Below the pieces are notes generated by a model, which made no database searches, was not told the origin of the DNA, and saw only the letters and a list, made by a program, of their open reading frames with translations. A DNA stretch of 64,000 bases from Opitutales bacterium (GTDB taxonomy: Bacteria; Verrucomicrobiota; Verrucomicrobiia; Opitutales; Seribacteraceae): contig JAQXBH010000093.1 in assembly GCA_029252505.1 (NCBI GenBank), forward strand, positions 526 to 64,525, written 5' to 3'. The position numbers and the translations under genes were made by a program. Below, one piece after another: positions 1 to 51,682 of this stretch. Numbering within the stretch: position 1 is the stretch's first letter; every line of letters begins with the position of its first letter.

Positions 1-3000
1 TAAGGTCCAGGATCGCTTGGATTTTGCCCCCAAAGTATATCTGCTTCCATCTCTTGGCCATCAGATAACATGACCTTAGCCTTTTGGAATGAAGGAGGAA
101 CTTCACCACCACTAGAAGAACCGAAAAAATATCTCCCAGGTTCAATAATTTTCAATCCAACGACTTCGCCTTCAGAATCAACAATAGCCTCCGCTTTTGC
201 ATCTATCCCCGAACTGCCTGCTGGTTGAATTCCAACAGTAGGACGATTTGAATTTTCGACCTTAAATTTAAAAACATGATTGAGTGGCTTTTCGACTTGC
301 AACCAAACATCGTTCGCAACTAATTGACCACTGATTGTAGGTACATTCACATCACTTGGAGTAACAAGTGGAAGATCGCCAGAAAGACTCGGGATATTCA
401 GGTAGTTATTAAAATTATTTTTTTGGCACTGAAAATACTTTCCTTCATGATAAACAATTTGGCCATAATCGTAAGAAAGGTTAGGAGTCCAATCGTCTCC
501 TTGCTGAGCAGAGCGTGGACCGCTAAGCGTTGTTGAACTACCGACTTTACTAAAATATGCACCCTCTTGAAGTGAATAATCAGGCAAGGTTTGAGATGTC
601 CAATTCGATGCAAAATTAGCGACAGTATTATCAGCAGGAGAAATATCAGTGGCAGTAGTATAATATTTACCATCTTTGTAAGCGTGATCACCTGCGCTAA
701 ATGCAAAACCTTCCTTCCATGTTGTTGCCTCAGTCCAGTTGGTCCCAAAATTTCCCAAAGTATTACTCTCAGCTGTAATTGAGGAATTAGCAAAATAAAG
801 TAATCCGTTCGCAGTCGACATTTCACCAGAAGAAACTGGTACACCAGTTACCCAGGATGCGGGCTTGGTTATATCTTGCTTCGCAATATAAAAATCGTTG
901 TTATCTGGATCGTAAATGTAGTCACCAGACTTTGCCTCAAGCTGTCTAGTAGCCGAATAAATAGGTTCCTTACCTTCAGTAGGTAAAGTATCGCCTAATA
1001 AGAAAACATTCCCATCAGAGCGCTCAGTCAATCCGACAACATTTAATGAAGTACCGCTAAAGTGAGTAGCTTGTATATTTGCATCTGTTAAGGAAAATGA
1101 AAAATCTGACTTAACTGCAAAGTATTTGTTGTTTGCGGAGTCATGAACATACTGACCTTTCTTGAGCTTTACCTGCTCAGGACCGTACCCTACATCAAGT
1201 AAACCGGAAGGTAAAAATACGGAAACCGGATTGGTTGTCGTGCTAACATCTTTGAAGTACTTGTTATTCGCGGGGTTGGCAATCGAGGCGTCTTTAGTTG
1301 CTTCATTTTCAACTGTTGTGGATACATTCAACGCAGATGTACCGAAATTCAAACTTGCTAGTTGCGAGGCGCTAGGAGGATTCGGGGGAGTACCTAATTC
1401 TAGCCAATTGGTAGCAAAGTTGGACTCAGTATTGTTAACAGAAGAAGCGTTGTTAATGGCTTCGTATAATTTACCTTGGTAAGTTGTGGTATCACCTTGG
1501 GAAACCGCTTCACCAGTTTTCCATTCGCCAAGGTGCTTTGATTTTATTTCGTAATAAATACCTTTTGCGTTTGCATCTACTCCATCCCAAACCACATCTC
1601 CCACAGCATACTCTTTTTTAGGGTCAAAAGTACCCCTCATAGAATCAGATGCAACCATAACAGAAGTTCCTTCAGGCGAAATGAAATTACCAGCGAGAAA
1701 CGGAGAGGAATTAAACTTCTCAAGGCTGGCAGGATCCTTTGGCATTGTTGTTGCCGTTGCGGTAGCCTGAGAAAGTACTGAGTTAATGTCTGCAGCTGTT
1801 AAGGAAATTTTCTCATTAGCCAAGTAATATTTATTATTAGTATCATCATGAAGATACTGACCTGCATTAATATCAAAACTTGTTGCCGAAGAAAGTTTTA
1901 GCACCGGTCCGTTGTATGTATGAACATTTCCCTGCGGAGGGAAGCTTTCAACTATATGCTCTAAGTTGGAAGGGTCGACCTGGGTGGAGTCTTGGACCAA
2001 GAAATACCTTCCTTCATGCAAAATTACATCATTGTTTTGAAATTTACCCGTAGATGAAAAGACTTGGCCATTTTCTTTTACAAAACTTCCCTTGATTACA
2101 GAACCACCTTCGGCGGCAGCAACAAGTTTGTATTCTAAAGTTTCTGGATCAAAAAATACCGCTGAATCACTTTCAGATGAATTAATTGAAAATTCGTTTA
2201 CAGGAACTGCAATTCGTTTAACAACATTAGCTAAATCTGTGGCAAGAGCAGCACCTGGGTTGCTAGATTGCTGATATTCTTGAATCTTGCTGGCCACAAG
2301 AATCGATTGCGCATGTGCATTGGCACTTGTAACATCAGCAAATAACTTTCCATCGGGAGTTGAGTAATAAAAGCGATTAGTAGTTCCTGTAACCTCCAAG
2401 TTCCAGTCTTCTCTTGGAACATCGTAACCCGAACCAATTTCCGTCCAATAATCAGTTCCACTGTTTACAGGGGAATGATTTACATTATCCGAACCAATTG
2501 ACTCGAAAAATCTTCCTTCATGTTCAACAATATCTCCCTGTTTGTAAATCGTCAAACGCCTCCAATTCTCCGTGTGCTCGACAGCCAAATTTGATGCGCC
2601 ACTAACTTGGGCAGAAGTAACCGTTAGGTCCCTACTCCAATCACTTCCTTTTACGGAAGAATCAACAATTGCTTTTTCTGACTGAGTAAGTTCCGAATAT
2701 TTGACACCAGGAAACCTAGACGCAGTTTCTATGTTTAACTTTTCTTCCAGTTGCTCAGGGAAATAGTAATTGGGATTCCATTTCGTGGTGTAAGAAGAAG
2801 ATGCTTGATAAGATTCTCCAACACTTCCATGGATGAGTAAATTGCCGTTTGCTGCAATTTCAGCATTAAGAGAAGCTTTTGTGTTTCTGAAAGAATCTGA
2901 AGTTGTTGAACCTCTCACGAATGCCTTATACTCTGAGGTTTCATAGGAAAGAGAATCCGAAACTAACTCAGAATCGTTGTTAATCAGATCTTTCAATCGC

Positions 3001-3614
3001 AGGGCAATGTTGTCGGTGCTTAGGCCTTTGATTTTAGATTGAACCACATACTCTCGACCGTTTAACGAAAAATTGACCACTTCACCCTGATCGATTCTTC
3101 TTTTTCCGTCGTTACCAAGAGTGCCCACTTCATTAAAGGTAAAGGTCTTCTGTTCGCGTTTACCAAGCAATATTTCGGAGTTACCATAATCAGGTTTTAA
3201 CTTGGTTCCTCCAAAAAGTGCCTGTTTTCGATGTGTCGAGTTGACTCGATTAAGTGCTTCCTCGATTAACTGATTGAGCTCAAAACCATAGGTTTCCATT
3301 GCTGGGCCATTAAGACTCGAACCGGCAGTTCTGGCAATTTCTTGACCCCGTTGATTGAGTTCACGCAGTTTATCTAAATTTAGATAACCCGCATCCAAAT
3401 ATTCCTTAGCGTAGGAAGCATTCCTTTGGTATTGGGTTAATTGACCCTTTTGAGTCTCCATTTGGATGACACGACCTAAACGCATCCCGTCGTCTTCTGG
3501 TAAAGTCAGTTTTTGCCCACTTGTGATTTGTGCATCAAGCTTAAATCTTTGTTGATCAAGTTCTTTTATCTTTTGGATAATCGAATTACTTGAACTTATA
3601 TTGGGCAACCTCAT
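1..3614 (-). CDS. flgL: Giant flagellar hook-associated protein 3 (FlgL) with CBM5/12-like repeats; 3' end lies outside the window (>1204 aa)
   Basis: Not in the ORF track because there is no stop in the window. Hand translation from ATG 3614 gives MRLPNISSSNSIIQKIKELDQQRFKLDAQITSGQKLTLPEDDGMR...NSTHRKQALFGGTK (flagellin/FlgL N-domain motifs Q-x-x-SG-x-K-x3-P-x-DD and LFGG). The frame is open in every segment checked down to position 1. It starts 3 bp after the flgK stop. Confidence 0.88.
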   Translation of the reverse strand, partial: MRLPNISSSNSIIQKIKELDQQRFKLDAQITSGQKLTLPEDDGMRLGRVIQMETQKGQLTQYQRNASYAKEYLDAGYLNLDKLRELNQRGQEIARTAGSSLNGPAMETYGFELNQLIEEALNRVNSTHRKQALFGGTKLKPDYGNSEILLGKREQKTFTFNEVGTLGNDGKRRIDQGEVVNFSLNGREYVVQSKIKGLSTDNIALRLKDLINNDSELVSDSLSYETSEYKAFVRGSTTSDSFRNTKASLNAEIAANGNLLIHGSVGESYQASSSYTTKWNPNYYFPEQLEEKLNIETASRFPGVKYSELTQSEKAIVDSSVKGSDWSRDLTVTSAQVSGASNLAVEHTENWRRLTIYKQGDIVEHEGRFFESIGSDNVNHSPVNSGTDYWTEIGSGYDVPREDWNLEVTGTTNRFYYSTPDGKLFADVTSANAHAQSILVASKIQEYQQSSNPGAALATDLANVVKRIAVPVNEFSINSSESDSAVFFDPETLEYKLVAAAEGGSVIKGSFVKENGQVFSSTGKFQNNDVILHEGRYFLVQDSTQVDPSNLEHIVESFPPQGNVHTYNGPVLKLSSATSFDINAGQYLHDDTNNKYYLANEKISLTAADINSVLSQATATATTMPKDPASLEKFNSSPFLAGNFISPEGTSVMVASDSMRGTFDPKKEYAVGDVVWDGVDANAKGIYYEIKSKHLGEWKTGEAVSQGDTTTYQGKLYEAINNASSVNNTESNFATNWLELGTPPNPPSASQLASLNFGTSALNVSTTVENEATKDASIANPANNKYFKDVSTTTNPVSVFLPSGLLDVGYGPEQVKLKKGQYVHDSANNKYFAVKSDFSFSLTDANIQATHFSGTSLNVVGLTERSDGNVFLLGDTLPTEGKEPIYSATRQLEAKSGDYIYDPDNNDFYIAKQDITKPASWVTGVPVSSGEMSTANGLLYFANSSITAESNTLGNFGTNWTEATTWKEGFAFSAGDHAYKDGKYYTTATDISPADNTVANFASNWTSQTLPDYSLQEGAYFSKVGSSTTLSGPRSAQQGDDWTPNLSYDYGQIVYHEGKYFQCQKNNFNNYLNIPSLSGDLPLVTPSDVNVPTISGQLVANDVWLQVEKPLNHVFKFKVENSNRPTVGIQPAGSSGIDAKAEAIVDSEGEVVGLKIIEPGRYFFGSSSGGEVPPSFQKAKVMLSDGQEMEADILWGQNPSDPGP
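600..719 (-). repeat. 40-aa CBM5/12-like repeat in FlgL (WKEGFAFSAGDHAYKDGKYYTTATDISPADNTVANFASNW)
   Basis: Hand translation; same W-to-W spacing and NT-x-x-NF-x-x-NW ending as the copies at 735-854 and 1404-1523. Confidence 0.75.
735..854 (-). repeat. 40-aa CBM5/12-like repeat in FlgL (WVTGVPVSSGEMSTANGLLYFANSSITAESNTLGNFGTNW)
   Basis: Hand translation; tandem with the copy at 600-719. Confidence 0.7.
1404..1523 (-). repeat. 40-aa CBM5/12-like repeat in FlgL (WKTGEAVSQGDTTTYQGKLYEAINNASSVNNTESNFATNW)
   Basis: Hand translation; W-x8-GD-x3-Y-x-G-x-x-Y-x-A pattern. Confidence 0.75.
2445..2564 (-). repeat. 40-aa CBM5/12-like repeat in FlgL (WRRLTIYKQGDIVEHEGRFFESIGSDNVNHSPVNSGTDYW)
   Basis: Best match to the ChtBD3/CBM5/12 consensus W-x5-Y-x2-GD-x-V-x-(Y/H)-x-G-x2-(Y/F)...N...P...W. 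Confidence 0.78.
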
Positions 3615-3617
3615 AAA

Positions 3618-6600
3618 TTATTTTAAAAGACCCATTACAACAAGTTCGAGCATTTTGTCGAGCGTATTTAACACTCTAGAAGAGGCCTGGAACGACCGTT
3701 GAAATTGCATAAGGTCAGCAACTTCTTCATCAATTGATACTGAGCTAACTGAATTTCTTTGTTCTAGCAATAATGTTTCAATCGTATTTTGATGATCTAT
3801 ATTATCACTCAAGTCGGAAAGCGAATTGCCTATATCCGCGTTGATATCAGATATATCTTTTGCAAATTCGTTATTACCTAGCTCTGCAATAGCAAGCGCA
3901 ATTTCATTGGAACCCTGATCAAAATCCGCACTCGCAACAATGCTGTCAGCACTGAGATTATTATCAACAATGAGGGAGCTAGCCAAATTCCAACTATTTT
4001 CAAGAACTGTATCGAAAGAAAAATTATCTCCCAATAAAAACTCACTATCACCCTGCTCTAACCTAAAGGGCACATTTTCATAAGCAAGCATAACGGAACG
4101 TCCATCATCAGCGGTACCAATTAGTAAATCTGCACCCGCATAGGTGGAATCAGTTTCCATGGTAACATTTTGCATCTTCTTAGCACTTCCATAAAATGTG
4201 TAAAGCGATCCTGAACTTGAATCCTCTAACTGGATCTGCCCTTCGGTAGTGTCGCGAATAATATATCCAGTCCCTTCGAATTGTTCTCTTAATTCAACTG
4301 GAATCACTGGAGTCGTACTCGTTACAGTAAATGTGTCGTTTTCAGCGTAAGCAAGTGTCATTGAAACTTCATTCCTAAACAACTTCATCTCTCCGTTACC
4401 CTCAACTCCATATAAACCAAACTCTTCCTCCATAATCACATTTCGACCCATGGTAGGTCGGGTCAAATTTGCTTCAAAGCCAAACAGATATTCTCCTGGA
4501 GCGTCCTGAGGGTTATAGATTCCGTTCACTTGTGTTACAAATTTAGAAACCAAATCATTGAGAGAAACTCTGAAATCTTCCAGCTCAACCTGACGGGAGT
4601 GTTGATACCCGTGTAAGGAACCAGATTTTAAATCAATCTCCAATCCATTAACAAATAAGGCATCAGTCGAGGGCAAGTCTTTGGATTGTTGAAGAATGTG
4701 AAAACTCTTAATTTCTCCATCTTGAATAATGGCTTCGGCGACTCCGATATTGAGTTCCTGTAATGAACCATTGGAGATATTTAATCCGCCTGGGTTTGCT
4801 TTTCGTAGGACAGAAGTAACCGGAAGTCCAGAATCAGCATCAGGAGTAAAAATATGAAAATTATTTTTCCAATTAGCGTCGTTGGGATTAAATGTATTAA
4901 TTTCTGCATCACCAACGATGGGGTTTGGTTTTGCTTTGACCAAAAAATGAGTACTAGATGTCTCATCATAATAAATTCCACCCGAGTTAAAATTCATTTG
5001 AAGCTCGGTAGCCTCAACTCCATTTGTAACAATAGTTACATTTTCTGGCAAAGACTGAACAGTGGATATAGTATCATCAACAAAGGAGTTTACCTTGATA
5101 AAGTTAGCGGAGGAATGTGGTAGCTCAGTTGTTGCCGCTGATACATTTGAAACTGCCATATAAAAATCTCCACCCGTACCAGAAGGTGCATTCGGATCTA
5201 TAAATGAAATAACCGAACCTGCTGTAAGGTCGTTTCCATCAGGCCATGACATATTTAATTCTTCAGATTTCTTGGGTAGCGTTGCCCCAAGAGTGACGAT
5301 TCCAGATTGATCAACAGTACCCGCAGTAGTTACTAAGGAAGAAATCTCAGTAGCTCTGGGAATCGTTTTCGTTGCTTGGTAGTAATTATTCTCAAAGAGA
5401 AAAACTTCACCATTAGAATAGTTCCTTGAACTGAGAGTAGCGTTAGTCAAAGGATCGACGACACCAACTTCATTCGATACTGGACCAACCCCGGTAGTTG
5501 CTTGATAGACTTTGCCCTCGTAATAAATCTGTTTACCCTTAGGGATAAAATCAACATCGGAAAAAGTTCTCTTGGTCTCAATTACAATCCCATTGGGTGG
5601 ATTTGAAATAGCCAAAAACCTCGATTCGTCTGTTAGCAAATCTCCCTTTTGTGTATCGACTAAAGCTTGATAGTAACTCTCCCCTTCATAAAAAACTTCT
5701 CCAATCTTTCGAGCAGCAGAAGAAGGATCAACTGGTATAGTACTCGCAATATCGCCCCCCGCCTGAGCGGCAATCTCATTGCCCGCGTCAACTGCTTGGT
5801 TTGCCATTTGAATAGCTGCGACCTGTTCATTTGCTGCGGCATTTTCCTCCTGATTAACCAGATCTGCTTTTTCTTGTACAACAAGAGGTTCGTTTGGCTT
5901 CGGAGGCAACAGACTCACTAAGAAAGGACCATCAGAATCGTTGTACTTAGAACCGCCCTTTAGAACTTCAAGTCTGCCTAACTGTCCATTGGAATCAATT
6001 TTGGCACGGACAACCGCTGCTGTACCGGCAGCATCCTGAGGACCCGCAATTGTAAACTCCTGCCCCCATTGATTAGTAAGAGACTTTGAACCTTTAGAAT
6101 CTAAAATATTAATCTTTTCATCATTTTTTCCTTCGATGAAAAGGTTTACAAAACCAGAGGGTTTACCAGTAGTCGCGGAAACATCATCTTCTTGAGTAAA
6201 ATTAATGTAACTTCCCAATTCCTCAAATAACTTTTGTCTTTGGTCCCGGTAGGAAACTGCTTTTCCTTGATCAAGGAGCTCAAAACGCCGAACTTGGGTA
6301 TTTGCTTCGTGGATTTGACCTAATAAAATATTAATTTTTTCAGTTGATCTTGTAATCACTTCTGAAACATCCTCTTCAATCTGCTCAAGGCTTTGCCCAG
6401 CCTCATTAAAGCGCTTGGTTAAGGTTTCAATCTTATGATAAAGTTCTTGTTTGATAGTCGGTTCATAAGGAGAAGCCGAAAGTTCCTGGAAGGTGTTAAA
6501 AAAATCGTTTAACGCACGGGTTAAACTACCGGGGGCTAAATCGCTGTCATGCAAATCATCCAGTCCAACATTAACTCCTTGACGATTAATTTTCTCTCCC

Positions 6601-6902
6601 AATGCAGCCTGTAACAATTGCAAAATTTCCTGCTGTGCAGCCAATGATTCGGAGTCCCCTTTTTCGTTAATAACCCGGGCATCTAAGATTTGATTCCTGG
6701 CATGATCGACTCCACCAGTCTCTAATCCGGATGAAAGCAGACCCCCAAACGAAGTATGCATGACTCCTTCTCGAGCCAAGACCCTTTGTCGTGCATAATT
6801 TTCGTCATTAACATGAGCTAAATTTTGACCCGCTACTTCTGCTGTTCTTGCATGATAGCGAAGAGCTTCCGAGCTTTTGCTTATTTCTCCAAGTAATCCC
6901 AC
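3618..6902 (-). CDS. flgK: Enlarged flagellar hook-associated protein 1 (FlgK), 1094 aa
   Basis: N-terminal GQNLAHVNDENYARQRV and C-terminal SVSSVSIDEEVADLMQFQRSFQASSRVLNTLDKML are FlgK motifs; lies between flgN and flgL. Confidence 0.93.
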   Translation of the reverse strand: MGLLGEISKSSEALRYHARTAEVAGQNLAHVNDENYARQRVLAREGVMHTSFGGLLSSGLETGGVDHARNQILDARVINEKGDSESLAAQQEILQLLQAALGEKINRQGVNVGLDDLHDSDLAPGSLTRALNDFFNTFQELSASPYEPTIKQELYHKIETLTKRFNEAGQSLEQIEEDVSEVITRSTEKINILLGQIHEANTQVRRFELLDQGKAVSYRDQRQKLFEELGSYINFTQEDDVSATTGKPSGFVNLFIEGKNDEKINILDSKGSKSLTNQWGQEFTIAGPQDAAGTAAVVRAKIDSNGQLGRLEVLKGGSKYNDSDGPFLVSLLPPKPNEPLVVQEKADLVNQEENAAANEQVAAIQMANQAVDAGNEIAAQAGGDIASTIPVDPSSAARKIGEVFYEGESYYQALVDTQKGDLLTDESRFLAISNPPNGIVIETKRTFSDVDFIPKGKQIYYEGKVYQATTGVGPVSNEVGVVDPLTNATLSSRNYSNGEVFLFENNYYQATKTIPRATEISSLVTTAGTVDQSGIVTLGATLPKKSEELNMSWPDGNDLTAGSVISFIDPNAPSGTGGDFYMAVSNVSAATTELPHSSANFIKVNSFVDDTISTVQSLPENVTIVTNGVEATELQMNFNSGGIYYDETSSTHFLVKAKPNPIVGDAEINTFNPNDANWKNNFHIFTPDADSGLPVTSVLRKANPGGLNISNGSLQELNIGVAEAIIQDGEIKSFHILQQSKDLPSTDALFVNGLEIDLKSGSLHGYQHSRQVELEDFRVSLNDLVSKFVTQVNGIYNPQDAPGEYLFGFEANLTRPTMGRNVIMEEEFGLYGVEGNGEMKLFRNEVSMTLAYAENDTFTVTSTTPVIPVELREQFEGTGYIIRDTTEGQIQLEDSSSGSLYTFYGSAKKMQNVTMETDSTYAGADLLIGTADDGRSVMLAYENVPFRLEQGDSEFLLGDNFSFDTVLENSWNLASSLIVDNNLSADSIVASADFDQGSNEIALAIAELGNNEFAKDISDINADIGNSLSDLSDNIDHQNTIETLLLEQRNSVSSVSIDEEVADLMQFQRSFQASSRVLNTLDKMLELVVMGLLK

Positions 6903-6915
6903 AATATTCTATTTG

Positions 6916-7446
6916 TTAAGCAGACTCGTTGAGGGAGGAGCGATTGGTAGAAGACAATCTCCTTATATCCCCAGTACGGTTGTAAGTTTTAGAATGAGAC
7001 TTCGGGTCTGTTACCGAGAGTAACTGATCAGTAACTTCGGAAAGACGAGCAAGAATTTTTTGATTTTGAGCAATCCTATGTCTAATTTGAGAAATAAGTT
7101 TATTGATTTCTTCAATTATGCTTTGAAACATGGGCTGTGTAACTACTGGAAAATGTTCTACCAATTGGTTTAAACTCGAATCACTGGGTTCGCCCATGGA
7201 GTTGGCAAGTGAGATAACAAATCCGTGTCTTCTTTTTTGAAGTATCTGACTTGCTTCCATTTGTGTTTGAACCGACTGATTGATTTCCATTAAACTTTCT
7301 GTACGACGATCAAGAATACTCTGCTGCTGTGCACTCAGTAGTCCCACCAAGCCACCATATTCCTGCAATTCATCTCTAAGTAAAGTGAGTAAATCTTCCC
7401 ATGTAAAGGTTAGATTCGAGTGAGGCTTTTGTGCAAGTTGAACCAT
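6916..7446 (-). CDS. flgN: Flagellar export chaperone FlgN
   Basis: Helical 176-aa protein (LLSAQQQSIL, AQNQKIL, TYNRTG) immediately upstream of flgK. Confidence 0.8.
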   Translation of the reverse strand: MVQLAQKPHSNLTFTWEDLLTLLRDELQEYGGLVGLLSAQQQSILDRRTESLMEINQSVQTQMEASQILQKRRHGFVISLANSMGEPSDSSLNQLVEHFPVVTQPMFQSIIEEINKLISQIRHRIAQNQKILARLSEVTDQLLSVTDPKSHSKTYNRTGDIRRLSSTNRSSLNESA

Positions 7447-7453
7447 TTCTATA

Positions 7454-7798
7454 TTATTTAATTTCTTTATCTACTGGTTCAGAGGAATCATCACTAGTCT
7501 GGAGTTGTTGCTGGAGAATAGTCGAAACTCCAAAACCACCACCGCTGGCAATACTTTCTGAAATCGCATCAGTGAAAAAATGGCGGTACATGCGGTGAGC
7601 CCCACCATCTTCATTAAAAACACCCTTAAACATTGGTTTGAGCGCTTCCTTTAAAAACTGTTTTACCAATACAGATTCAAATTGGTCACTCACTGCTGCT
7701 ACTTTCTGATTATGGGTGGTATTTTTGGAGTGTGCCATCTCCATAAGCATGGAAGAATCCATACCTACATACTGCTTACCAATATCTTGTGCTTCCAT
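7454..7798 (-). CDS. flgJ: FlgJ rod-binding protein (no muramidase domain)
   Basis: QFESVLVKQFLKEA...ESIASGGGFGVSTILQQQL rod-binding motif; follows flgI; 114 aa. Confidence 0.85.
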   Translation of the reverse strand: MEAQDIGKQYVGMDSSMLMEMAHSKNTTHNQKVAAVSDQFESVLVKQFLKEALKPMFKGVFNEDGGAHRMYRHFFTDAISESIASGGGFGVSTILQQQLQTSDDSSEPVDKEIK

Positions 7799-7800
7799 GA

Positions 7801-8916
7801 TTAATTAATGATGAGTTCCGCTTGCAACGCTCCAGCATTCTTGATGGATTGTAAAATTGATGTCATCTCCCTTGTAGTTAATCCGAGTTTATTCAATGCA
7901 GAAGCAAGCTCGTTCACGGTCGATGCTCCAGGTGGATCAAGTTCGTCAAGTGCTTCAAAACGACCAACCTCTTCTATTAATTCAGCATTTTCACCCTGTA
8001 AAATTGTGGTTGCCCCTTGCGAGAAGGGTAAGGGTTGACTTACTCCAGTAGTGGGATTCAAGAAAATTGTTACATTACTACTACTCACCGCGACAGGTGA
8101 GATACGAACGCTTTGAGTGGCAACGATTGTCCCGGTTCGTTCATTAATGATAACACGAGCAGGCACATCTGGTTTTACATCGATACCACCAACTGCAGCG
8201 AGGAAATTAGTTGTCTGTCCACGAAAATCAACCGGTAACTGGACATTTACTACTCCACCATCTACCGCCAGCGAAGTTCCGGGATAGTACTTATTGACCG
8301 CATCAGCGATCTTAACTGCCGTTAAAGCATCCGGTGATCGTAGTATGAGTTCAATCTCGTTGCCAGAATTTAAAATTTTACTTTCAATTTCTCTCTCCAC
8401 TAGTCCTCCATTGCTCACTATCCCAACTGTCGGGTGGTTAACTTGAACATTTGCACCTCCTCCACCACCTGCTGAAAGTCCTCCTATTGAAACTGCACCT
8501 TGTGCAACCGTGTACACATTTCCATCTGCACCGTATAATGGAGTTTGTAATAAAATTCCGCCCTGCAAAGAATCAGCATTACCGATCGATGATACTGTAA
8601 CATCCATACGGGATCCTTCTTTTGCAAAAGGACCAATATCGGCGGTGACCATAACGGCAGCAATATTTCGAGATTTGTCGGCTTTATCGGCACGAATACC
8701 CAAAGTTTCCAATGCATTTAAAATTCCAAGTTCAGTATATTCAATGCGGGAATCTCCCTGCCCCGAAAGTCCAGTAACAATACCATAACCATATAATTGG
8801 TTGCTTCGACTTCCCCGAACATCGGTTAGATCTTTTATACGAGCACCATAAACTGAAAAAGATGCCAATAAAACGAGGCAACTAAATAAGGACTTTATTG
8901 GTAGTGTAATTCTCAT
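7801..8916 (-). CDS. flgI: Flagellar P-ring protein FlgI
   Basis: ARIKDL, NQLYGYGIVTGLSGQGD, NIAAVMVTA, INERTGTIV, GALQAELII. Start moved to ATG 8916 (signal peptide) to avoid overlap with flgH. Confidence 0.97.
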   Translation of the reverse strand: MRITLPIKSLFSCLVLLASFSVYGARIKDLTDVRGSRSNQLYGYGIVTGLSGQGDSRIEYTELGILNALETLGIRADKADKSRNIAAVMVTADIGPFAKEGSRMDVTVSSIGNADSLQGGILLQTPLYGADGNVYTVAQGAVSIGGLSAGGGGGANVQVNHPTVGIVSNGGLVEREIESKILNSGNEIELILRSPDALTAVKIADAVNKYYPGTSLAVDGGVVNVQLPVDFRGQTTNFLAAVGGIDVKPDVPARVIINERTGTIVATQSVRISPVAVSSSNVTIFLNPTTGVSQPLPFSQGATTILQGENAELIEEVGRFEALDELDPPGASTVNELASALNKLGLTTREMTSILQSIKNAGALQAELIIN

Positions 8917-8920
8917 TTGT

Positions 8921-9550
8921 CTAGAATGGATTAACCACCGAAGCGATTTTCTGGTACCAACTCTCTTTCTGAGCATCGTTTAAACTCCCCTTCGATACAA
9001 ATTCGATTTGAGCATCAGCAATATATTGGGAGGAAACGATATTACGGTATCTTAAACCCTCCCGAAATCCTGCACCTATATCTTCTTGCCTGACCATTCC
9101 TTTTAACACTGCGTAGTAACTTTCTCCGGAAAATGTAACCATCCGAGCTCCCTCCAAAACAAGAACACCATTTGGTAAAACATCAATTACAACAACACTA
9201 ACCCGTCCCTTCAAGTCCTGAGTATTAGCAATAGACCCACCGCCTTTATTACTGCTTTTTGATTCAATTTCAGTTCCGGGCAGTCCGCCATTGTGGGTAC
9301 CCATTTTACTATTAGCAAAAAGAAATTGTTTAACGGCGTTCTCGACCTGAGATTGTCGGTTACGAACAGAATTTTGAGAGGCGGCAAGGGAGGAACTTTC
9401 TCCCACATCAATAGTAATTAAATCACCAACAGAAAAAGAGCGCTTGTCACCGTACAAACCTCTTTGGTTGTTAGTGCTCTTCATCCACAAAGAAACGCCA
9501 AAAGTAATATTAACGAGAATTAAAAAGAGAAATGTAATAAAAAACTTCAT
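8921..9550 (-). CDS. flgH: Flagellar L-ring protein FlgH
   Basis: LYGDKRSFSVGDLITI, VIDVLPNGVLVLEG, GMVRQEDI, C-terminal NPF. Confidence 0.95.
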   Translation of the reverse strand: MKFFITFLFLILVNITFGVSLWMKSTNNQRGLYGDKRSFSVGDLITIDVGESSSLAASQNSVRNRQSQVENAVKQFLFANSKMGTHNGGLPGTEIESKSSNKGGGSIANTQDLKGRVSVVVIDVLPNGVLVLEGARMVTFSGESYYAVLKGMVRQEDIGAGFREGLRYRNIVSSQYIADAQIEFVSKGSLNDAQKESWYQKIASVVNPF

Positions 9551-12020: not shown

Positions 12021-12296
12021 TCAGTATTCACACTTGATGTCAATTACTCGACCGTCCGGTATGTGTACTAACAAATTGGAGGGAATCCCCTCCACCGAAA
12101 CAACTTCAATTTTTATACCGCTCTCGTCTGTATGAATAACGTCAGTTTGAGCATCAATCTCAGCTTGGGTCTCCTCAAGCGGTGGGACTGAAGAGTGCTG
12201 TTTACTTGGGTCAGCCAAATAAGGACTGAATGAGTCTGACTTTTCAGACTCGATATTATCGATGTTGGAACCTCGCCCAGATAAATAACTCTGCAT
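12021..12296 (-). CDS. Small acidic hypothetical protein in the flagellar cluster
   Basis: 91-aa ORF filling the motB-flgF gap, with its own sigma54-like promoter and a beta-rich C-terminus IEVVSVEGIPSNLLVHIPDGRVIDIKCEY. Confidence 0.75.
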   Translation of the reverse strand: MQSYLSGRGSNIDNIESEKSDSFSPYLADPSKQHSSVPPLEETQAEIDAQTDVIHTDESGIKIEVVSVEGIPSNLLVHIPDGRVIDIKCEY

Positions 12297-14872: not shown

Positions 14873-15190
14873 CTAAACTTGAGCGTCAACCATGCGGTTG
14901 GCAGTTGTTGAAGCCTCGTTCATTGCAGCGGTAGCCAAATTAGTAGGGTCATTTTCAGTAGATAATGATAAATCTCTCGGATCAATTGGGTTGGTATTTG
15001 AATCTACAATATTTCCATTTAAAATAAAGCTTAATAAAATCCTGCCACAAACTGCAAAAAAGAGACATCCGAAAGAACTTTGCACAAGAGCAGTTAAAAG
15101 ATCGTTAGTGATAATGATTCCAAGCATAAAAAAAAGAACGAATCCGATAAAACCGCTTAAACAAAAGAAAAACTTTGCATCATTATTCAT
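14873..15190 (-). CDS. Small two-TM membrane protein between flhF and fliA
   Basis: 105 aa, two hydrophobic helices then a polar tail; tightly packed in the operon. Confidence 0.75.
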   Translation of the reverse strand: MNNDAKFFFCLSGFIGFVLFFMLGIIITNDLLTALVQSSFGCLFFAVCGRILLSFILNGNIVDSNTNPIDPRDLSLSTENDPTNLATAAMNEASTTANRMVDAQV

Positions 15191-23773: not shown

Positions 23774-24625
23774 CTATCGTTTAAGGTTAACGGCTTCAGA
23801 GAGAATCATATCAGAAGTTGTCACGACACGAGACCCGGCCTGAAAAGAACGCTGGTGAGAAATCATGGCAGCAAACTCATTAGTCAGATCCACATTAGAC
23901 AATTCTAAAGCATATTGCTTGAGCTTACCGTTGGAGCCTGTTGCTGGAATTGTGTTATCACTAATACCAGCAATGTTTTGACCGGCTTGTCCATTCGAAT
24001 AAAATCCATTCCCTACCCTTCTTAGATATTGAGGAGAGAGAAAATTGTTAAGTTTAATTTGACCTGAACCTCTGATTTCATCTACTCCGTCTTTATTTAC
24101 AACTAAATTGATTTTACCATCTTCCTCGATCCTACGCGCCAGGAGAGTTTCTCCCTCTTGCGTTCCTACAACCAAAGGACCATCTAACCCCTGTAATTGA
24201 TATCGGTATTGGTCTCGAGTAACAACAAATCCTTCCACAGTTGATTCAAATGCACCCGCTCTTGTGTAAAACAATTCGCCAGTTACGGGATCTGCTATTT
24301 CAAAAAAACCACCCCCGTTAGGCAGTGCTTCACCTTGAATTGCCAAATCCAAATCTAAACCTGTGATTTCTACAGTACCTTGTGTGAAATCGGAAGATAT
24401 TGAACCAACATGAACGCCCGTACCATGTTGTTGAATGTTGTTGCTGGGCACACCACCCGCACCAGACTCCGCGTCATTCATGTGTAAATAAAAATTGTCA
24501 GAGTAATTTGCCCTAGAAGACTTGTACCCGAGAGAATTTACATTGGAAATGTTGTTTCCAAGAACCTGTAATCCTTGGGTAAGACTTTTAAGGGCGGTAA
24601 CACCGTTATGTAATGAAGCAATCAT
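23774..24625 (-). CDS. flgE: Flagellar hook protein FlgE (short, 283 aa)
   Basis: GNNISNVNSLGYKSSR, YTRAGAF, LELSNVDLTNEFAAMISHQRSFQAGSR; directly after flgD. Confidence 0.9.
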   Translation of the reverse strand: MIASLHNGVTALKSLTQGLQVLGNNISNVNSLGYKSSRANYSDNFYLHMNDAESGAGGVPSNNIQQHGTGVHVGSISSDFTQGTVEITGLDLDLAIQGEALPNGGGFFEIADPVTGELFYTRAGAFESTVEGFVVTRDQYRYQLQGLDGPLVVGTQEGETLLARRIEEDGKINLVVNKDGVDEIRGSGQIKLNNFLSPQYLRRVGNGFYSNGQAGQNIAGISDNTIPATGSNGKLKQYALELSNVDLTNEFAAMISHQRSFQAGSRVVTTSDMILSEAVNLKR

Positions 24626-26039: not shown

Positions 26040-26711
26040 TTAGTTCGCAGGAATTCCGGTTGGGGCTAGGTCGCCCAAATCCAAACTAGGTAACAGTCCA
26101 CGGTCTCTCATTGAAAGAGCATCAGCAAGCTCGATCAAAGAATCCTCATCGCTGTTATACATAAAGGAAATAATGGGAGCTTTGTCTTCCGCTTTGAGAA
26201 GTTCAAATATCGTCAGTGCTTCTTCAAACCTACGTTTTTGTCTCCAATTTTGAATTTCAACAGTCGCAACTTCCGGTCCCATTTCAACCCACCTCTTGGA
26301 GGTATCTTTGTACTCTTTTAATTTTTCCTCACTTAAATCCTGCCCTTGTCTTGCTTCAAAATCAGCTAATCGAGCAGACAGATCATCCTGGATTTGATTC
26401 ATTTCTTTCTTCTGCTTTTCGAGTGCTTCTAAGTCCATTGCGATCGCAGATTCCCGGGAGTCGAGCTCAGTTTCTCTTTCTAGCAATTTTTCTTTCAATG
26501 CAGCCAACTCTTTGGATAGTTGGTTCATCGAATGAGTTTCCGCAGGGGAATAACTGGTATCATCGGCATCGAATTCAACACTGGTAAATTCTGCCTTGAT
26601 CTCTGGTTTAGGTTTAAACAAATCATCGTAGCTCAATACTACCATAAAACCAGCGGATCCGACTGATAGCAATACAGCTAATATAACAATAATAATGGGT
26701 GATATTTTCAT
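26040..26711 (-). CDS. MotE/FlbB/YlxF-like membrane-anchored coiled-coil flagellar protein
   Basis: N-terminal TM, long coiled coil, MgtE_N-like C-terminus (RWVEMGPEVA); position fliJ-X-fliK as for Bacillus ylxF. Confidence 0.65.
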   Translation of the reverse strand: MKISPIIIVILAVLLSVGSAGFMVVLSYDDLFKPKPEIKAEFTSVEFDADDTSYSPAETHSMNQLSKELAALKEKLLERETELDSRESAIAMDLEALEKQKKEMNQIQDDLSARLADFEARQGQDLSEEKLKEYKDTSKRWVEMGPEVATVEIQNWRQKRRFEEALTIFELLKAEDKAPIISFMYNSDEDSLIELADALSMRDRGLLPSLDLGDLAPTGIPAN

Positions 26712-34884: not shown

Positions 34885-35301
34885 TCACTTTGTCAAAACT
34901 CCCTGCTCATAACGCAGTATGGATCTTACTTTTCCATTTTTTCCATAGAAAATCATATCTCCATGAAGTCGTCCGTCTAAATAATTTGCTTCCACCCAAG
35001 AACCATCTTTTGACTTTTTAATACTCTTTCCGTTTAACCGACCATCGTTAAAAGTTTGGATTGTATTTAATTTAGATCCGTTTCTTTCTAACTTTCCTGC
35101 GAACGGCGCTGCACTTTCCCGATGCAAAAGAATCGAAATGTTATCATCAGGTTCGACTATGAACTCCTTTTGAAAATCTTCTTCTTTTCCTATCCATTCA
35201 GTTGGGAGTTCTCGGGGAGATTCATCTGTCAAATCCTCTCCGCACGAAAGCAGCAAAGAAATACAGGAAAGTGGGAGTAATCGAGTACAGAATTCTCTCA
35301 A
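34885..35301 (-). CDS. Lipoprotein with MORN-variant (YwqK-like) repeats
   Basis: Lipobox LLSC; FNDGRLNG, YLDGRLHG, YGKNGK repeats. Confidence 0.75.
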   Translation of the reverse strand: MREFCTRLLPLSCISLLLSCGEDLTDESPRELPTEWIGKEEDFQKEFIVEPDDNISILLHRESAAPFAGKLERNGSKLNTIQTFNDGRLNGKSIKKSKDGSWVEANYLDGRLHGDMIFYGKNGKVRSILRYEQGVLTK

Positions 35302-35882
35302 TTTTTTAAGTAGTCTGAAAATTCATAAAGTTCAGGATCGCGAATGATTTTTTTCTTCATAAACTTCTTAATCTTGGACTTAACTGTTTCTTGAGAGGCG
35401 CCTTCTTCTCCCTCTTGCATCCCGGAAGGCTGTTCTTCATCTCCTAAAAAGTCTCCCATTTGACTTTCTAGTTCATCCGGATCGGCGCCTTCCTCGAGTT
35501 TGCGTACAACTTCCTCCATAGGTTCATCCATTGTTTCCCCTGTCATCTCACACATTTTGCGCATCAATTGCCCCATTTGCTTGGGATCTGGGTTATCTTC
35601 GTCCATCCCCCCCATAGCACCCTCCAACTCCTTCATTACCTTTTCTGCTTGATTGGGATCCATGCCCGCAAATGGATCATTGGCATCATCTCCAGAACCT
35701 TGCTCGGGCATTTCAACAGGTTCTTCCTTTTTTCCGGTAATCGAAAATCCAGACATCACTTTTTCCATTTTATACTTTTTGCCGTCCGGGCATTCAGGCG
35801 TTTTATCCGAGTATGAAGTGGAATGGGCAAAGAATGAATAGATCTTTCCCTTCTCTCGACTCATGAATTCATAGATTGGCAT
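35298..35882 (-). CDS. FmdB-like protein with a degenerate zinc ribbon and an acidic Met-rich tail
   Basis: MPIYEF...PECPDG...MEKVMSGFS N-terminus; DPKQMGQLMRKM, RKLEEGADP. Confidence 0.75.
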   Translation of the reverse strand: MPIYEFMSREKGKIYSFFAHSTSYSDKTPECPDGKKYKMEKVMSGFSITGKKEEPVEMPEQGSGDDANDPFAGMDPNQAEKVMKELEGAMGGMDEDNPDPKQMGQLMRKMCEMTGETMDEPMEEVVRKLEEGADPDELESQMGDFLGDEEQPSGMQEGEEGASQETVKSKIKKFMKKKIIRDPELYEFSDYLKN

Positions 35883-40141: not shown

Positions 40142-43100
40142 TTATTCATAGCGATGCCATTTCTTTAAACTGTAGTGGTAAATTGCAGAAGGTACATCAC
40201 CTTGTTTCCTTCTGAAAAACAACCAGTCCGAAATTAAAGAGTTGTATAAATAGCCCTCCCCCTTATCAGCGTCCCAATTTTCTGTATTAGTCCAAGACCA
40301 TCCCCATCTTTCGGTCCAAAACCAGATATTATCGGTTTGAGAATTAGCGACTAAATAAATCCATAGAAAATCTTCATGATAAGTCCATGAATTATCAAAT
40401 GTATTAAAATAACCTAGCCAATTGGTTTTCCAATCCCCCAAATTAGTCTCGGTTGCTTCTTGAGACATTTTAGTCTGAACAGTTAAAGAATATTCAAGAG
40501 TTTCTTGATAACTAAAGTTTTGATCGATGAACTGGTCCGCAAATATTTGAATCGGAAAAGTTCCAGTGTCCCTTTCTAATGGAGTTCCTTCGACAACAAA
40601 TCGATTCTTGGATATGCGGTTTAATCGTAACCATTTCGGAAAACCTTCGGGTATTAATAAGATATTATCAAACGATGAACCAGTAAGTAGGAATTCGGAT
40701 CGATATAGCTTAAACTGAACTCCGCTTGAAACTGGGTTTCCAAGAATGGAGAAAGCACTTCCATTCACTAGAATCTTAACTTTCCATTGAGCAGTAAGTC
40801 CTGGAAGGTCGGTCGAATTGATATCAAACCTCACCGTTTCATCAGGACTAATTGTAGTTGGACTTTTCCCCCAAACTAAACCACTGCCATCCGAAAAGAG
40901 GTCTATATTTAACCAATTCGGCTTTTGCACATTATTGAGTGTTAACTCGGTTCCACTCGGCCAAGGTCCAGAATTGAATTCATAACGGTACATACTGGAT
41001 GTAGGGATACTTGTTTTGGGCGCAGGAGAAAGAATGGGAGTAAACTGTTTGGGTCCCCATAGTGCTATATACGCATTAAAAGATCCGTTATTTGCAGTGG
41101 ATAAGGATCCACTTGAATCCATTATTCCTGAAGTGATTCCTGTAGTCAGTTTATGCCCTGGAAATGAACTGGTAATAGATTTCATTAAGTCATCTCCTGC
41201 CCCTCCAATCTGCACGGCATCAATTACGCTGGTACCCTCTTGGTTAAGCTTTGCTAAAAAAGAATCTTTCTTACCGGATGTTGAAAATATTTTTTCGCCT
41301 AATTTGATGTCATTGGAGAAAGAACCAACAAAATATGTGTGAATCGAATTTTTGTGAATTGAGTCAATTGAATCATTTCCAGTACCCCCGTAGGCATTGA
41401 AGGAAATACAATTTCCTTTATCAGTAAGAACAGCAATAAAACCATCCTGCTTTCCGTTACTTTCCACTTTTCGATTTCCCCAACTCATAGAGTTTCGAAA
41501 ATTTCCAGCAATCACTAATCGGTTTTCTTGTTCAAGATAGAGGCCATTAACCTTATCTGCCCCTTCTCCGCCACCGGAGTAAATATTTTGCCAAATTCCC
41601 TTATTATTAAGTTCTGCGACAAAGCAATCGGACAGACCAAGTGATTGATGGGTAATATCTCCAAAAGAAGATATTCCTTGATAAGATCCAGCGAGGAAAA
41701 TTTTTCCCATTGATGAAATAGCAAGAGCATCGACCCTGTCGTCTTCAATTCCTCCAAAACTTTGTAACCAAGAAGCAGAAGAGATATCAATCGAGGGGAC
41801 TTCTAAAATAAAGCCGTCTTCTCCTCCCTTGGAATTAACCGTGTACATACCGTGGGAAAAAGTTCCGTCGAATTGTCCTGTCAAAAAAAGACTATTTTGA
41901 TAAAAGCAAGCGTCCTGAAAGTACTCATTGGAAGAACTTCCAATTGAGCTAAGATTTTTCAAAGATCCATCTTCTGACCATTCAACCACATATAAGTCAT
42001 GACCACCTGAAGACTGAATACTAAATGGGCCAATTTGAAGATCTCCGCTAAAGTCCCCAATGATATAAATTTCGCCATCGAGTCCAAGAATCGTTGACCC
42101 TACAGATAAATCACCTGAACTTATCAATTGCACCGAACGGTCTATGGTTCCACTCAAAGAAAGCTTTGCTACGAAACCATTTGTCTGACCTTGGCTGCGA
42201 AGGATAGTTTGTCCTAAATTCACTGATTGAGAAAAGGTTCCACCAATCAAGTAGTTTCCATCTGATGAAGGGGCAGTAGAAGAAATATTGACTTCTTTTC
42301 CAAAATTAAGTGCAGAAGAAAAAGATGCTAATTTTGGATTAGAAATTATTACTTGGGGATTACTTGTAACAGAGTAATTAAAATCTAAATCAGAAATACC
42401 CCCATCTCCATTGTATGCACGAACCTTTATATTTCCCGTACTGGAAATTGTATTGGATGGAACACCACCAAGCATACCAGTACCATTTAGGTTATCTTGA
42501 AAGCTCATCCAAGGAGGAGATTTAATTAACTCCATCCGAACAAATGGTTGATTGAGAACTCTAATTTCCTGATGAAAGAAAGTATTTTCCTGGAGATTCA
42601 AATTAGAAAAAGGAGCAAAAGCCGGTTTCCCCAGAATAGACTCAAGTTGTACCAAAAATTGATTTCCCACAGAATATGAAAATTCGTTCAAGTTAAAAGG
42701 CGTTGAGAGAGAAGTCCCTAATAAGATTGTTCCAAACGGACCGATTTGAAACTCTGTGGCGAAATCATTCGCCACTGTGCTGATTGGTTCATTCCAAATA
42801 ATTGCTCCAGTAATAGGATCTAGTTTAACAAGCATCAAATCATTCAATCCTAACGATTCATGAATGAGCGAACTACTAGGAACCGACAAATTCCCATCGT
42901 AATTTAAAACAACAATCGGATAACCAAATCGATCTGCTTGGACTTCCTGTACTGTAGTACTTCCAGTGGAAGAAAAGGATTTCATCCAATTTAATTCGAG
43001 AGCAGAATCAAAGGATAAAGTAAACCCACTCGAAGGGGAGCCGGAAGAAATTGCCATAGAATCGATGATTAACTGGGTTTCAAATTGCCCAACAACCAAT

Positions 43101-49993: not shown

Positions 49994-50076
49994 TAACAAT
50001 AACCTCCTAAATATAAGCTAGTATTGCAAAGCTTTTAGGGAAATTTTTTACCCGAGTACAATCGGGGAGATCATAC

Positions 50077-50427
50077 TCAAGACCTCTTCGGTGCTCGTCT
50101 TACGAAAGGGACTATTTTGGATGAAGGCACACGTTGTACAAGTGGAGTACTTCTGACTGGCTTAGGTCGTTTGACTAAAGGCGTGCGCTTGACACGCTTT
50201 GGATATCTTGCAGTAGGTGAACGAGGAGCACTTGGCGACTTACGGGCAATTCGAGCGGAGGACACAAAAGGAGCACGCTTGGGAAAACCAAAGCTTGGAA
50301 CCGAACGAACTTTACTAACAGAGGGGGCTCGAGGAGCAGAAGGTGCTTGTCGAAAACCGAAAACAGAAAATGTGAGCAGGAAAAATCCTGTTAAGTATGA
50401 TAGATAAAATAATCTGTTAGGAAACAC
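50077..50427 (-). CDS. Small secreted Pro/Arg/Ser-rich polycationic protein
   Basis: Signal-peptide-like N-terminus, then R-x-P repeats with no Asp/Glu; GTG start overlaps the stop of the upstream peptidase gene. Confidence 0.55.
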   Translation of the reverse strand: MFPNRLFYLSYLTGFFLLTFSVFGFRQAPSAPRAPSVSKVRSVPSFGFPKRAPFVSSARIARKSPSAPRSPTARYPKRVKRTPLVKRPKPVRSTPLVQRVPSSKIVPFVRRAPKRS

Positions 50428-51610: not shown

Positions 51611-51682
51611 GATCTTTTTATATAAGCTTTTTGGAATTGTACAATACCACGCTTAAAAAAAACAATTTTTTTTGTAAATCTA

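Follow-up and report, generated by a model that had tools for sequence, protein, structure and literature searches.

The junction at which hook and filament of the bacterial flagellum meet is formed by two hook-associated proteins, FlgK (hook-associated protein 1, HAP1) and FlgL (hook-associated protein 3). In both species for which the junction has been solved, Salmonella and Campylobacter jejuni, it contains 11 FlgK and 11 FlgL subunits, and the FlgK layer of Salmonella is about 190 Å wide (available text of PMC12221982). The flgK and flgL genes analyzed here lie on a 64,000-nucleotide stretch of DNA from an Opitutales bacterium (GenBank assembly GCA_029252505.1, contig JAQXBH010000093.1, positions 526 to 64,525), referred to below as the window. 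Both genes encode giant proteins, two to four times as large as usual, and the main insertion in FlgK contains modules related to repeats in FlgL. Comparison with other loci indicates that this enlargement is the standard state of a clade and is not peculiar to the window genome.

The window FlgK resembles the solved FlgK proteins of Salmonella enterica (553 amino acids [aa]; 9go6, 2d4y) and C. jejuni (608 aa; 9gsx) in its Pfam domains and in the placement of its gene, with flgN upstream and flgL downstream. Its N-terminal D0/D1 region and C-terminal helices align with those of Salmonella FlgK, residues 103-216 and 460-547 of 9go6 corresponding to residues 124-236 and 1001-1086 of the window protein. 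However, the conserved blocks are about 765 residues apart in the window FlgK and only about 244 in Salmonella, and the solved proteins lack the carbohydrate-binding module family 5/12 (CBM5/12)-like and other beta modules that occur in this region. The giant flagellins of marine gamma-proteobacteria (Thomson et al. 2018, available text of PMC6248924) are likewise axial marine proteins of more than 1000 aa, and in them too the central outer region is enlarged between conserved terminal helices. As subunits of the filament they number in the thousands, and the whole filament is thickened. In contrast, the proteins described here are junction proteins of Verrucomicrobiota, presumably present in 11 copies each, and they carry CBM5/12-like modules. 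In the available part of the giant-flagellin paper, FlgL-like proteins were filtered out of the flagellin set and no giant ones were described. Closer relatives are the small FlgK and FlgL proteins of Opitutaceae, Chthoniobacteraceae, and Terrimicrobiaceae (for example, loci L051-L070), which share orthologous cores and the adjacency of flgK and flgL. The small FlgK cores have 29-38% identity to the window protein in the best tblastn segment and 31-45% in the BLASTP high-scoring segment pairs of eight of these proteins. These FlgKs have only 450-496 aa, though, and the FlgLs 298-313 aa, with no repeat matches. A full-text literature search found no enlarged or CBM-bearing FlgK or FlgL and no description of flagella in the marine Opitutales clade.

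The open reading frame (ORF) in the window is a bona fide flgK, and its domain matches indicate that the tube-forming D0/D1 core is intact. Pfam FlgK_D1 (PF22638) matches residues 126-258 with 87.5 bits (cutoff 28.6), and Flg_bbr_C (PF06429) matches residues 1051-1086 with 35.2 bits (cutoff 23). The top NCBIfam model is TIGR02492, flgK_ends (E 2.6e-44); its score of 152.2 bits is below the cutoff of 170.75, which fits the interrupted architecture of the protein. An earlier reading of the window, made from the sequence alone (the sequence-only reading), had given FlgK a length of 1094 aa, and the ORF confirms it (Table 1). Gene order in the window is flgN-flgK-flgL, with the start of flgL 3 nt beyond the stop of flgK. 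At locus L002, where FlgK is 89% identical, the next genes are fliW and csrA. Public records name such FlgKs "FlgK", "hypothetical protein", or even "biotin/lipoyl-binding protein, partial".

FlgK of the window has two insertions relative to small FlgK proteins. The yardstick was a hidden Markov model (HMM) of 19 small FlgKs (450-496 aa), of which 17 are verrucomicrobial by record title or tree position, one is unclassified (L073), and one is from Actinomycetota (L079). This model aligns to residues 2-267, 757-805, and 974-1090 of the window FlgK. Insertion 1 has 489 aa where small FlgKs have about 27, and insertion 2 has 168 aa where they have about 6. A 469-aa FlgK from Opitutaceae matches the Pfam FlgK_D1 model without a break, whereas the match is interrupted in the window FlgK and, in relatives, resumes past the insert; insertion 1 is therefore placed in a loop of D1. 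The sequence-only reading had reported an insertion of about 470 aa at positions 4650-6060, marked by eight short strings, and a second insertion in the C-terminal third. All eight strings are present, at residues 274-283, 398-416, 453-470, 494-512, 553-567, 580-585, 640-653, and 758-770. The first and last of these, the two anchor motifs, enclose 474 aa, the reported positions fall within insertion 1, and the second insertion was borne out at residues 806-973 by the HMM boundaries. For insertion 2, ESM Atlas features point toward FlgK D2-like families, all of them below 0.9 and useful as leads only. A phmmer search of residues 758-1000 against PDB sequences gave nothing significant.

Insertion 1 is a string of small modules. 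It begins with one copy (G1) of a module type also found in FlgL. Next come a linker predicted to be disordered, a tandem series of three to four CBM5/12-like hairpin modules that are degenerate, a fifth aromatic module, and a further copy (G2) of the first type. The aromatic modules are numbered M1 to M5. In the family alignment no other stretch of the insert is as poorly conserved or as gapped as the linker (residues 340-389). Two proteins of a sister group, P0033 and P0040, score 30.6-30.9 bits with Biotin_lipoyl_2 at residues 349-376, numbers similar to those of the linker. The public record named "biotin/lipoyl-binding protein" is in line with this sister-group score.

The repeats of FlgL fall into two classes. 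The extra part of the protein comprises about 1100 residues, and the 1204 aa inside the window hold eight to ten aromatic repeats and one G-type copy. Class A is the unit that Pfam recognizes as CBM_5_12 (PF02839) and is found in five clear copies (A1-A5) plus weaker ones, and class B is found in three copies (B1-B3). The Pfam score of FlgL for CBM_5_12, summed over stretches, is marginal at 27.8 bits (cutoff 26.2); trimmed FlgL gives three such stretches and 26.2 bits. The best stretch is repeat A2, where residues 697-727 cover profile positions 1-31 of 44.

Profile comparisons show that the FlgK modules and the FlgL repeats resemble one another well beyond control levels. An HMM of class A was built from FlgL only, using 253 repeats from 82 FlgLs, and was run against 121 FlgKs (that of the window and 120 listed homologues). 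There were 205 matches at an independent E-value (i-E) below 0.01 and 45 at i-E<1e-4, while reversed and shuffled copies of the same FlgKs gave 0 and 0 at both thresholds. On the 109-sequence alignment the 255 matches at i-E<0.1 fall into the bins 400-410 (62 matches), 450-460 (103), 480 (2), 500 (78), and 560-570 (10). These are the positions of the first three aromatic motifs of the sequence-only reading, with a few further matches at the fourth. The class-B HMM gave 17 matches in FlgKs at i-E<0.01 and none in reversed or shuffled copies; at i-E<0.1 its matches fall at 570-580 (18), 640-650 (6), and 460 (7). In profile-profile comparison by hhalign the best probability was 91, 97, 94, 95, and 78% for M1 through M5, versus at most 9% for seven control FlgK segments against all ten FlgL repeats. 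When 232 six-frame stretches of the window were scanned with the FlgL-repeat HMMs, FlgL and FlgK alone matched, and the FlgK match was the M3 region. The shared core motif is kG[DE]xVxYxGxxYYQA.

The resemblance might instead reflect chance or composition, since the strings are aromatic-rich and biased toward G, Y, and Q. Matches of the class-A HMM to the window FlgK alone are marginal, with i-E of 1.9, 0.15, and 0.0025 at the three motifs. BLASTP of FlgK against FlgL gives one diffuse alignment (E 1e-4), and self-comparisons give no repeat segment pairs. BLASTP was too insensitive here, and therefore HMMs were used. An HMM made from just the five in-window FlgL repeats was also weak on FlgK, with a best score of 8.1, and became convincing once homologues were added. 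Against chance stand the 205 matches with none in reversed or shuffled sequences, the position-specific placement in the family alignment, the low hhalign controls, and the lack of matches in any other frame of the window. As far as controls can show, these results refute the compositional explanation, whose remaining probability is negligible. The kinship to the FlgL repeats is real for M1 to M4 and plausible for M5, the weakest link. The sequence-only reading had called the FlgK copies degenerate versions of the FlgL repeats, and this is a fair description. They cover only about positions 5-30 of the 42-position class-A profile and have lost the flanking W and NW, and M5 is the least certain.

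A second type of module, unrelated to the aromatic repeats, is also common to the two proteins. It consists of an Ala-rich strand followed by the pattern D..G.l....V...G..Y. G1 matches residues 1132-1163 of FlgL with an hhalign probability of 90% (E 1.7e-6), and G2 matches FlgL residues 1132-1190 with 69% (E 4.3e-5), with controls at 3% or less in both cases. Compared directly, G1 and G2 reach only 4%.

The insertion in FlgK is conserved among its homologues. Of the 120 listed, 108 have 1035-1207 aa, 11 have 1503-1811 aa, and one is a fragment of 678 aa. Across the window FlgK and 108 homologues, the least similar at about 41% identity, the insert can be aligned with few gaps. Mean identity to the window FlgK is 0.53-0.54 over the blocks of residues 401-480, which include M1 and M2, and 0.23 over residues 561-640. 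Some residues within the modules are invariant, for example Q412, Q458, and Q467. The scarcity of gaps and the identity within M1 and M2 may be signs of purifying selection. A search of the insert against 1.84 billion representatives found just 48 proteins at E<=1e-3. Eleven of these were examined; eight carry a FlgK or CBM_5_12 domain, the other three match no Pfam family, and all are consistent with being FlgKs or fragments. The 81 FlgL homologues range from 734 to 1491 aa, and 59 have a precomputed PF02839 match.

Giant FlgK and giant FlgL occur together. A scan of genome contigs returned 80 loci, of which 61 have complete ORFs for both proteins. The 19 others were dropped: in 14 FlgK or FlgL is cut by the contig end, L015 and L040 have no complete FlgK ORF passing the filter, L074 and L075 have no FlgL ORF downstream, and in L050 FlgK lies in two frames. 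In all 38 loci of the marine Opitutales type, a FlgK of 1042-1708 aa is paired with a FlgL of 1065-1619 aa, and both proteins have class-A repeat matches. In all 23 other loci (19 verrucomicrobial and four unclassified or from Actinomycetota), FlgK has 450-875 aa, FlgL has 298-414 aa, and there are no class-A or class-B matches. A FlgL-type ORF follows flgK in each of the 61 loci with complete pairs and in 14 more in which one of the two proteins is truncated or split or did not pass the filter. In a tree of the conserved core (67 rows, 349 columns), 42 giants lie on one side of a branch with SH-like approximate likelihood ratio test (SH-aLRT) support of 100. The giant pairing is fixed in one marine Opitutales clade and is consistent with a single origin. 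Within the giant clade neither the lengths of FlgK and FlgL (rho 0.22, p 0.18) nor their repeat counts (rho 0.16, p 0.33) covary, and therefore the co-expansion is regarded as one ancestral state of the clade followed by independent change. The proposal that the two proteins were co-expanded is supported in this sense: giants are paired with giants in 38/38 loci and small proteins with small in 23/23, with modules in common, but lengths and repeat counts do not change together within the clade. The sequence-only reading also allowed that such lengths might be standard in the lineage and already characterized. They are indeed the standard state of the clade, but no characterization was found in the literature searched. 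Overall it appears that this is a well-supported, clade-wide architectural oddity and not a new kind of system, and the anatomical and evolutionary statements made so far can be held with high confidence.

Some loci depart from the common lengths. A subclade with FlgKs of 1576-1811 aa (P0103-P0106, P0109, P0110, P0114, P0115, P0119, and P0122; loci L021, L035, L036, and L037) has three to four class-A matches per FlgK versus one to three elsewhere, and several of its members reach the Pfam cutoff for CBM_5_12. In L036 a FlgK of 1659 aa is paired with a FlgL of 1619 aa. In three loci from Terrimicrobiaceae and Chthoniobacter (L075, L077, and L078), FlgK has 861-875 aa, with the extra length at a different site, after a continuous D1, and without CBM-like repeats. 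FlgL has 376-389 aa in L077 and L078, and there is no FlgL ORF at L075. This looks like an independent enlargement of FlgK alone. FlgK of L050 (positions 4816-9538) is in two overlapping frames of 667 and 533 aa, next to a FlgL ORF of 406 aa, and FlgL of L026 (13435-17302) is split into 113 and 1237 aa. Both splits are probably assembly frameshifts.

The protein downstream of FlgK is called FlgL because TIGR02550 is its best model and because fliW and csrA come next in L002. The TIGR02550 score is 66.7 bits (E 2.3e-18), below the cutoff of 127.2; the C-terminus of the protein lies outside the window. The closest full-length homologue has 1397 aa and is 94% identical. Marine bacteria do have flagellins of more than 1000 aa, and the flagellin domain pf00669 also matches FlgL (available text of PMC6248924). 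If the protein were such a giant flagellin, the insert of FlgK would correspond to a thick filament, without any collar at the junction. Its only N-terminal Pfam match is Flagellin_N (27.3 bits versus a cutoff of 26.6), the full-length homologue in L002 has no Flagellin_C match at E<=0.01, and no flagellin gene was seen within the 64-kb window. However, the flagellin models of NCBIfam reach only E 0.0029 or worse, far behind TIGR02550. The gene order flgN-flgK-X-fliW-csrA also argues for FlgL, and the gene at the same position in 23/23 small-FlgK loci, found by the same N-terminal HMM, encodes a protein of 298-414 aa. In the biology of Bacillus subtilis, FliW and CsrA imply a separate flagellin target. 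With the FlgL model far ahead and synteny in agreement, the identification as a giant flagellin was rejected as very improbable.

Structure prediction suggests a connection between the FlgK modules and CBM5/12 domains. The AlphaFold2 (AF2) model of residues 284-757, based on a 63-row alignment, is all-beta apart from one disordered stretch at residues 340-389, with a predicted local distance difference test (pLDDT) score of 86.9 and a predicted TM-score (pTM) of 0.81. Residues 388-535 modeled alone have a pLDDT of 83.4 and a pTM of 0.52. Foldseek lists against the PDB are led by Vibrio chitin oligosaccharide deacetylases, with a probability of up to 0.89 (0.80-0.85 for residues 388-535). The C-terminal modules of such deacetylases (3wx7, 4ny2) are presumably CBM12. 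The chitin-binding domain of Bacillus circulans ChiA1 (1ed7) superimposes on the model of residues 388-535 with a target-normalized TM-score (TMt) of 0.62 and a root mean square deviation of 2.1 Å over 43 columns (E 2.3). For the whole 474-aa insert the TM-scores are about 0.1, and the matches pointed to tandem CBM-bearing proteins and no more. Against BFVD there were seven matches at E<=1e-3, one annotated as chitin oligosaccharide deacetylase. Named matches at E 2e-3 to 0.1 were chitin oligosaccharide deacetylase, CBM5/12, ChiA1-BD, ChiC_BD, and chitin-binding type 3. The modules share with CBM5/12 (PF02839; 1ed7 and the Vibrio deacetylases 3wx7 and 4ny2) the core pattern G-D/E-x-V-x-Y-x-G-x-x-Y-x-A and probably a small beta-hairpin fold, and the Pfam cutoff is reached by FlgL and by several longer FlgK relatives (P0109, P0115, P0119, and P0206; 27.3-34.7 bits). 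They differ in that the modules of the window FlgK have no Pfam score, correspond to the first half of the repeat profile only, and have lost the flanking tryptophans. A flagellar axial protein as the setting of such modules was not found in the literature searched. The FlgK modules are classed as degenerate and CBM5/12-like, not as members of the family, because the window FlgK is below the Pfam cutoff at any threshold.

The lowest E-values of Foldseek in the PDB (0.008-0.02) belong to receptor-binding or tail-fibre proteins of the Agrobacterium phages Milano (8fqc) and 7-7-1 (9rkv), with low TM-scores of 0.09-0.24. The likely source of this resemblance is that both sides are built from tandem small beta modules. 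Both phages are flagellotropic.

The best explanation of the locus joins the anatomy and the clade to a collar with putative glycan-binding activity, and as a whole it has a probability of roughly 45%. Since the D0/D1 core lines the tube, the inserts must point outward. By analogy with the Salmonella and C. jejuni structures, the window junction would have 11 copies of each protein with the FlgK layer proximal. At the hook-filament junction the outward inserts would then build up an oversized collar in two tiers, with about 130-165 aromatic modules per flagellum. This geometry is probable. The collar may present an exposed glycan-binding surface in which the better-kept CBM5/12-like repeats of FlgL are the binding tier and the degenerate copies of FlgK are mainly a scaffold tier beneath it. 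Such a collar could tether the base of the flagellum to polysaccharide particles or to the surface glycans of the cell itself. The binding function is more tentative than the geometry, at somewhat below even odds, and the "surface-display platform" of the sequence-only reading is pure inference.

Several observations weigh against this explanation. FlgL repeats A1-A4 retain a W at the N-terminal side and NW at the C-terminal side, and both are missing from the consensus of the FlgK modules; flanking tryptophans are the presumed ligand-binding residues in the CBM5/12 family. Residues 284-757 of the window FlgK have no Pfam CBM_5_12 match even at E<=10, Foldseek found no PDB match at E<=1e-3 for either AF2 model, and a phmmer search of the PDB with FlgL residues 340-1080 gave 0 matches. 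With just 22 module-bearing subunits per flagellum, the adhesive surface would be small. The difference in pTM between the whole insert and modules 1-3 suggests that the modules are packed into a compact body, which may suit a structural role at least as well as ligand binding. In addition, all relatives, the 38 giant-pair loci included, come from uncultured metagenome-assembled or single-amplified genomes, and the tree indicating a single origin was a quick IQ-TREE search, not the careful one.

Some of these observations can be read in favor of a mechanical collar, in which the hairpins are rigid building blocks without a ligand and the enlarged tiers stiffen or protect the junction between a thin, D2-less hook and the filament. 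The pTM of 0.81 for the whole insert points to an integrated body, the FlgK modules lack the flanking tryptophans and fail Pfam CBM_5_12, and the putative hook protein consists of D0/D1 only. In Salmonella, mutations in the FlgK-FlgL interface make filaments break more easily under shear (available text of PMC12221982). A purely structural role does not account for the W...NW that the class-A repeats of FlgL retain across homologues, nor for their reaching the Pfam cutoff. About 1750 extra residues per FlgK-FlgL pair are more than the stiffening of two layers should need, and the range of lengths in the clade (1042-1708 and 1065-1619 aa) is more like that of an exposed, evolvable surface. The mechanical explanation is the main alternative, with about one chance in three.

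The outer domains might also have no specific function. With 11 copies of each protein they would be cheap, free to drift, duplicate, and diversify in a nearly neutral way or under antigenic pressure, possibly from flagellotropic phage or grazers. Length and repeat number do vary within the clade without FlgK-FlgL covariation, residues 561-640 are poorly conserved (mean identity 0.23 to the window FlgK), and the best PDB fold matches include the tail-fibre proteins of phages Milano and 7-7-1 (E about 0.01). Such bloat is hard to reconcile with an architecture kept with few gaps in the window FlgK and 108 homologues, with the invariance of Q412, Q458, and Q467, or with both proteins being giant in 38/38 loci. 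We consider it improbable.

A stronger form of the glycan-binding explanation is that the junction is a dedicated polysaccharide-adhesion organelle of planktonic marine Opitutales. A ring of about 130-165 CBM5/12-type modules, held about one hook length off the cell surface, would fasten the cell to particles of chitinous material or algal glycan, and the motor, loaded or stalled by the ring, could report surface contact. This putative role is unlikely, slightly less so than functionless bloat.

Table 1. Junction genes, their modules and repeats, and neighboring flagellar genes in the window
Feature	Positions	Strand	Residues	Evidence or remark
flgL (hook-associated protein 3)	3..3614	minus		first 1204 aa in window; gene runs past window start
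FlgL copy of second shared module type	126..221	minus	FlgL 1132-1163	hhalign to G1/G2
FlgL class-A repeat A5	405..497	minus	FlgL 1040-1070	i-E 1.1e-13
FlgL class-A tandem A3 + A4	594..857	minus	FlgL 920-962 + 965-1007	i-E 8.8e-13 / 2.7e-15
FlgL class-B repeat B3	855..941	minus	FlgL 892-920	i-E 8.7e-15
FlgL class-B repeat B2	1083..1172	minus	FlgL 815-844	i-E 6.9e-15
FlgL class-A repeat A2	1395..1529	minus	FlgL 696-740	i-E 1.3e-17
FlgL class-B repeat B1	1788..1877	minus	FlgL 580-609	i-E 1.5e-14
FlgL class-A repeat A1	2436..2570	minus	FlgL 349-393	i-E 2.8e-19; flanking W and YW conserved
flgK (hook-associated protein 1)	3618..6902	minus		1094 aa, GTG start
Insertion 2 of FlgK	3984..4487	minus	FlgK 806-973	168 aa vs about 6 aa; HMM of 19 small FlgKs
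Second shared module type, copy G2	4623..4769	minus	FlgK 712-760	hhalign 69% to FlgL 1132-1190
Module M5 core	4944..4985	minus	FlgK 640-653	hhalign best 78% to a6, 44% to B2
Insertion 1 of FlgK	4635..6101	minus	FlgK 268-756	489 aa vs about 27 aa; HMM of 19 small FlgKs
Module M4, nearer FlgL class B	5148..5246	minus	FlgK 553-585	hhalign 95% to B3; class-B i-E 0.32
Aromatic module M3 core	5367..5423	minus	FlgK 494-512	i-E 0.0025; hhalign 94% to A5
Aromatic module M2 core	5493..5546	minus	FlgK 453-470	hhalign 97% to FlgL A2
Aromatic module M1 core, degenerate CBM5/12-like	5655..5711	minus	FlgK 398-416	hhalign 91% to FlgL A5
Q/A/N/E-rich linker, predicted disordered	5736..5885	minus	FlgK 340-389	AF2 pLDDT < 50 at insert residues 57-87, 89-106
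Second shared module type, copy G1	5943..6038	minus	FlgK 289-320	hhalign to FlgL 1132-1163
flgN, export chaperone gene, upstream neighbor of flgK	6916..7446	minus		Pfam FlgN 67.5 bits
FlgE/F/G-family protein, putative D2-less hook protein, between flgD and fliL	23774..24625	minus		283 aa; Pfam, NCBIfam

The putative hook protein is small. The 283-aa ORF lies after a fliK-like gene and has only Flg_bb_rod, LlgE_F_G_D1, and Flg_bbr_C in Pfam. It matches NF009278, a FlgG-named NCBIfam model of 263 positions, from end to end, and scores 156.8 bits with the FlgE/F/G subfamily model TIGR03506 (cutoff 70.25). The sequence-only reading had contrasted a minimal FlgE with the enlarged junction proteins. 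The small size and lack of D2 are real by Pfam and NCBIfam, and "minimal" describes the protein fairly, but no evidence links them to the junction expansion; small D2-less hook proteins are a known type and this one is not obviously tied to it.

The junction genes stand at the end of a long flagellar cluster. From 7454 to 33098 on the minus strand, the order begins with flgB, flgC, fliE, fliF, fliG, fliH, fliI, fliJ, an unknown ORF, the fliK-like gene, and flgD. It continues with the 283-aa FlgE-like gene, fliL, and fliM, then fliP, fliR, flhB, flhA, an FlhF-like GTPase, and a sigma factor. These are followed by motA, motB, flgF, flgG, flgA, flgH, flgI, and a rod-binding protein, and flgN-flgK-flgL-fliW-csrA closes the cluster. 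This arrangement follows that of the fla/che operon in Bacillus subtilis. At E<=0.001 no Pfam family matches nine further ORFs of 91-397 aa (50417-53979, 34885-35882, 26040-26711, 12021-12296, and 14873-15190). Three of these ORFs are within the flagellar cluster, at 26040-26711 (fliJ/fliK), 12021-12296 (motB/flgF), and 14873-15190 (FlhF-like/sigma factor). An ORF of 3285 aa at 40142-49999 on the minus strand has Big_9, FG-GAP_2, He_PIG, cadherin-like, and bacterial surface Ig-like domains. These domains suggest a giant protein of the surface or adhesin type, encoded 7 kb past the flagellar cluster. The FlgL-repeat HMMs give no match in it.

Elaboration of outer domains is well known for flagellins, while the junction proteins have usually been taken as small, invariant adaptors. 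In a whole abundant marine clade both adaptors are enlarged with modules of carbohydrate-binding type from a common toolkit, in an architecture that is conserved. The proteins are also a natural example of axial-protein D1 loops that tolerate inserts of about 500 aa passing through the type III export channel. If the collar is purely structural, it would solve the mechanical mismatch of hook and filament in a new way. If it binds glycans, it would tie the machinery of motility directly to the attachment of polysaccharide-degrading Verrucomicrobiota to particles. Should the junction prove to be a dedicated adhesion organelle, this would be a function of junction proteins not found in the literature searched, and it would give molecular access to the switch by which motile, free-living Verrucomicrobiota become attached to particles.

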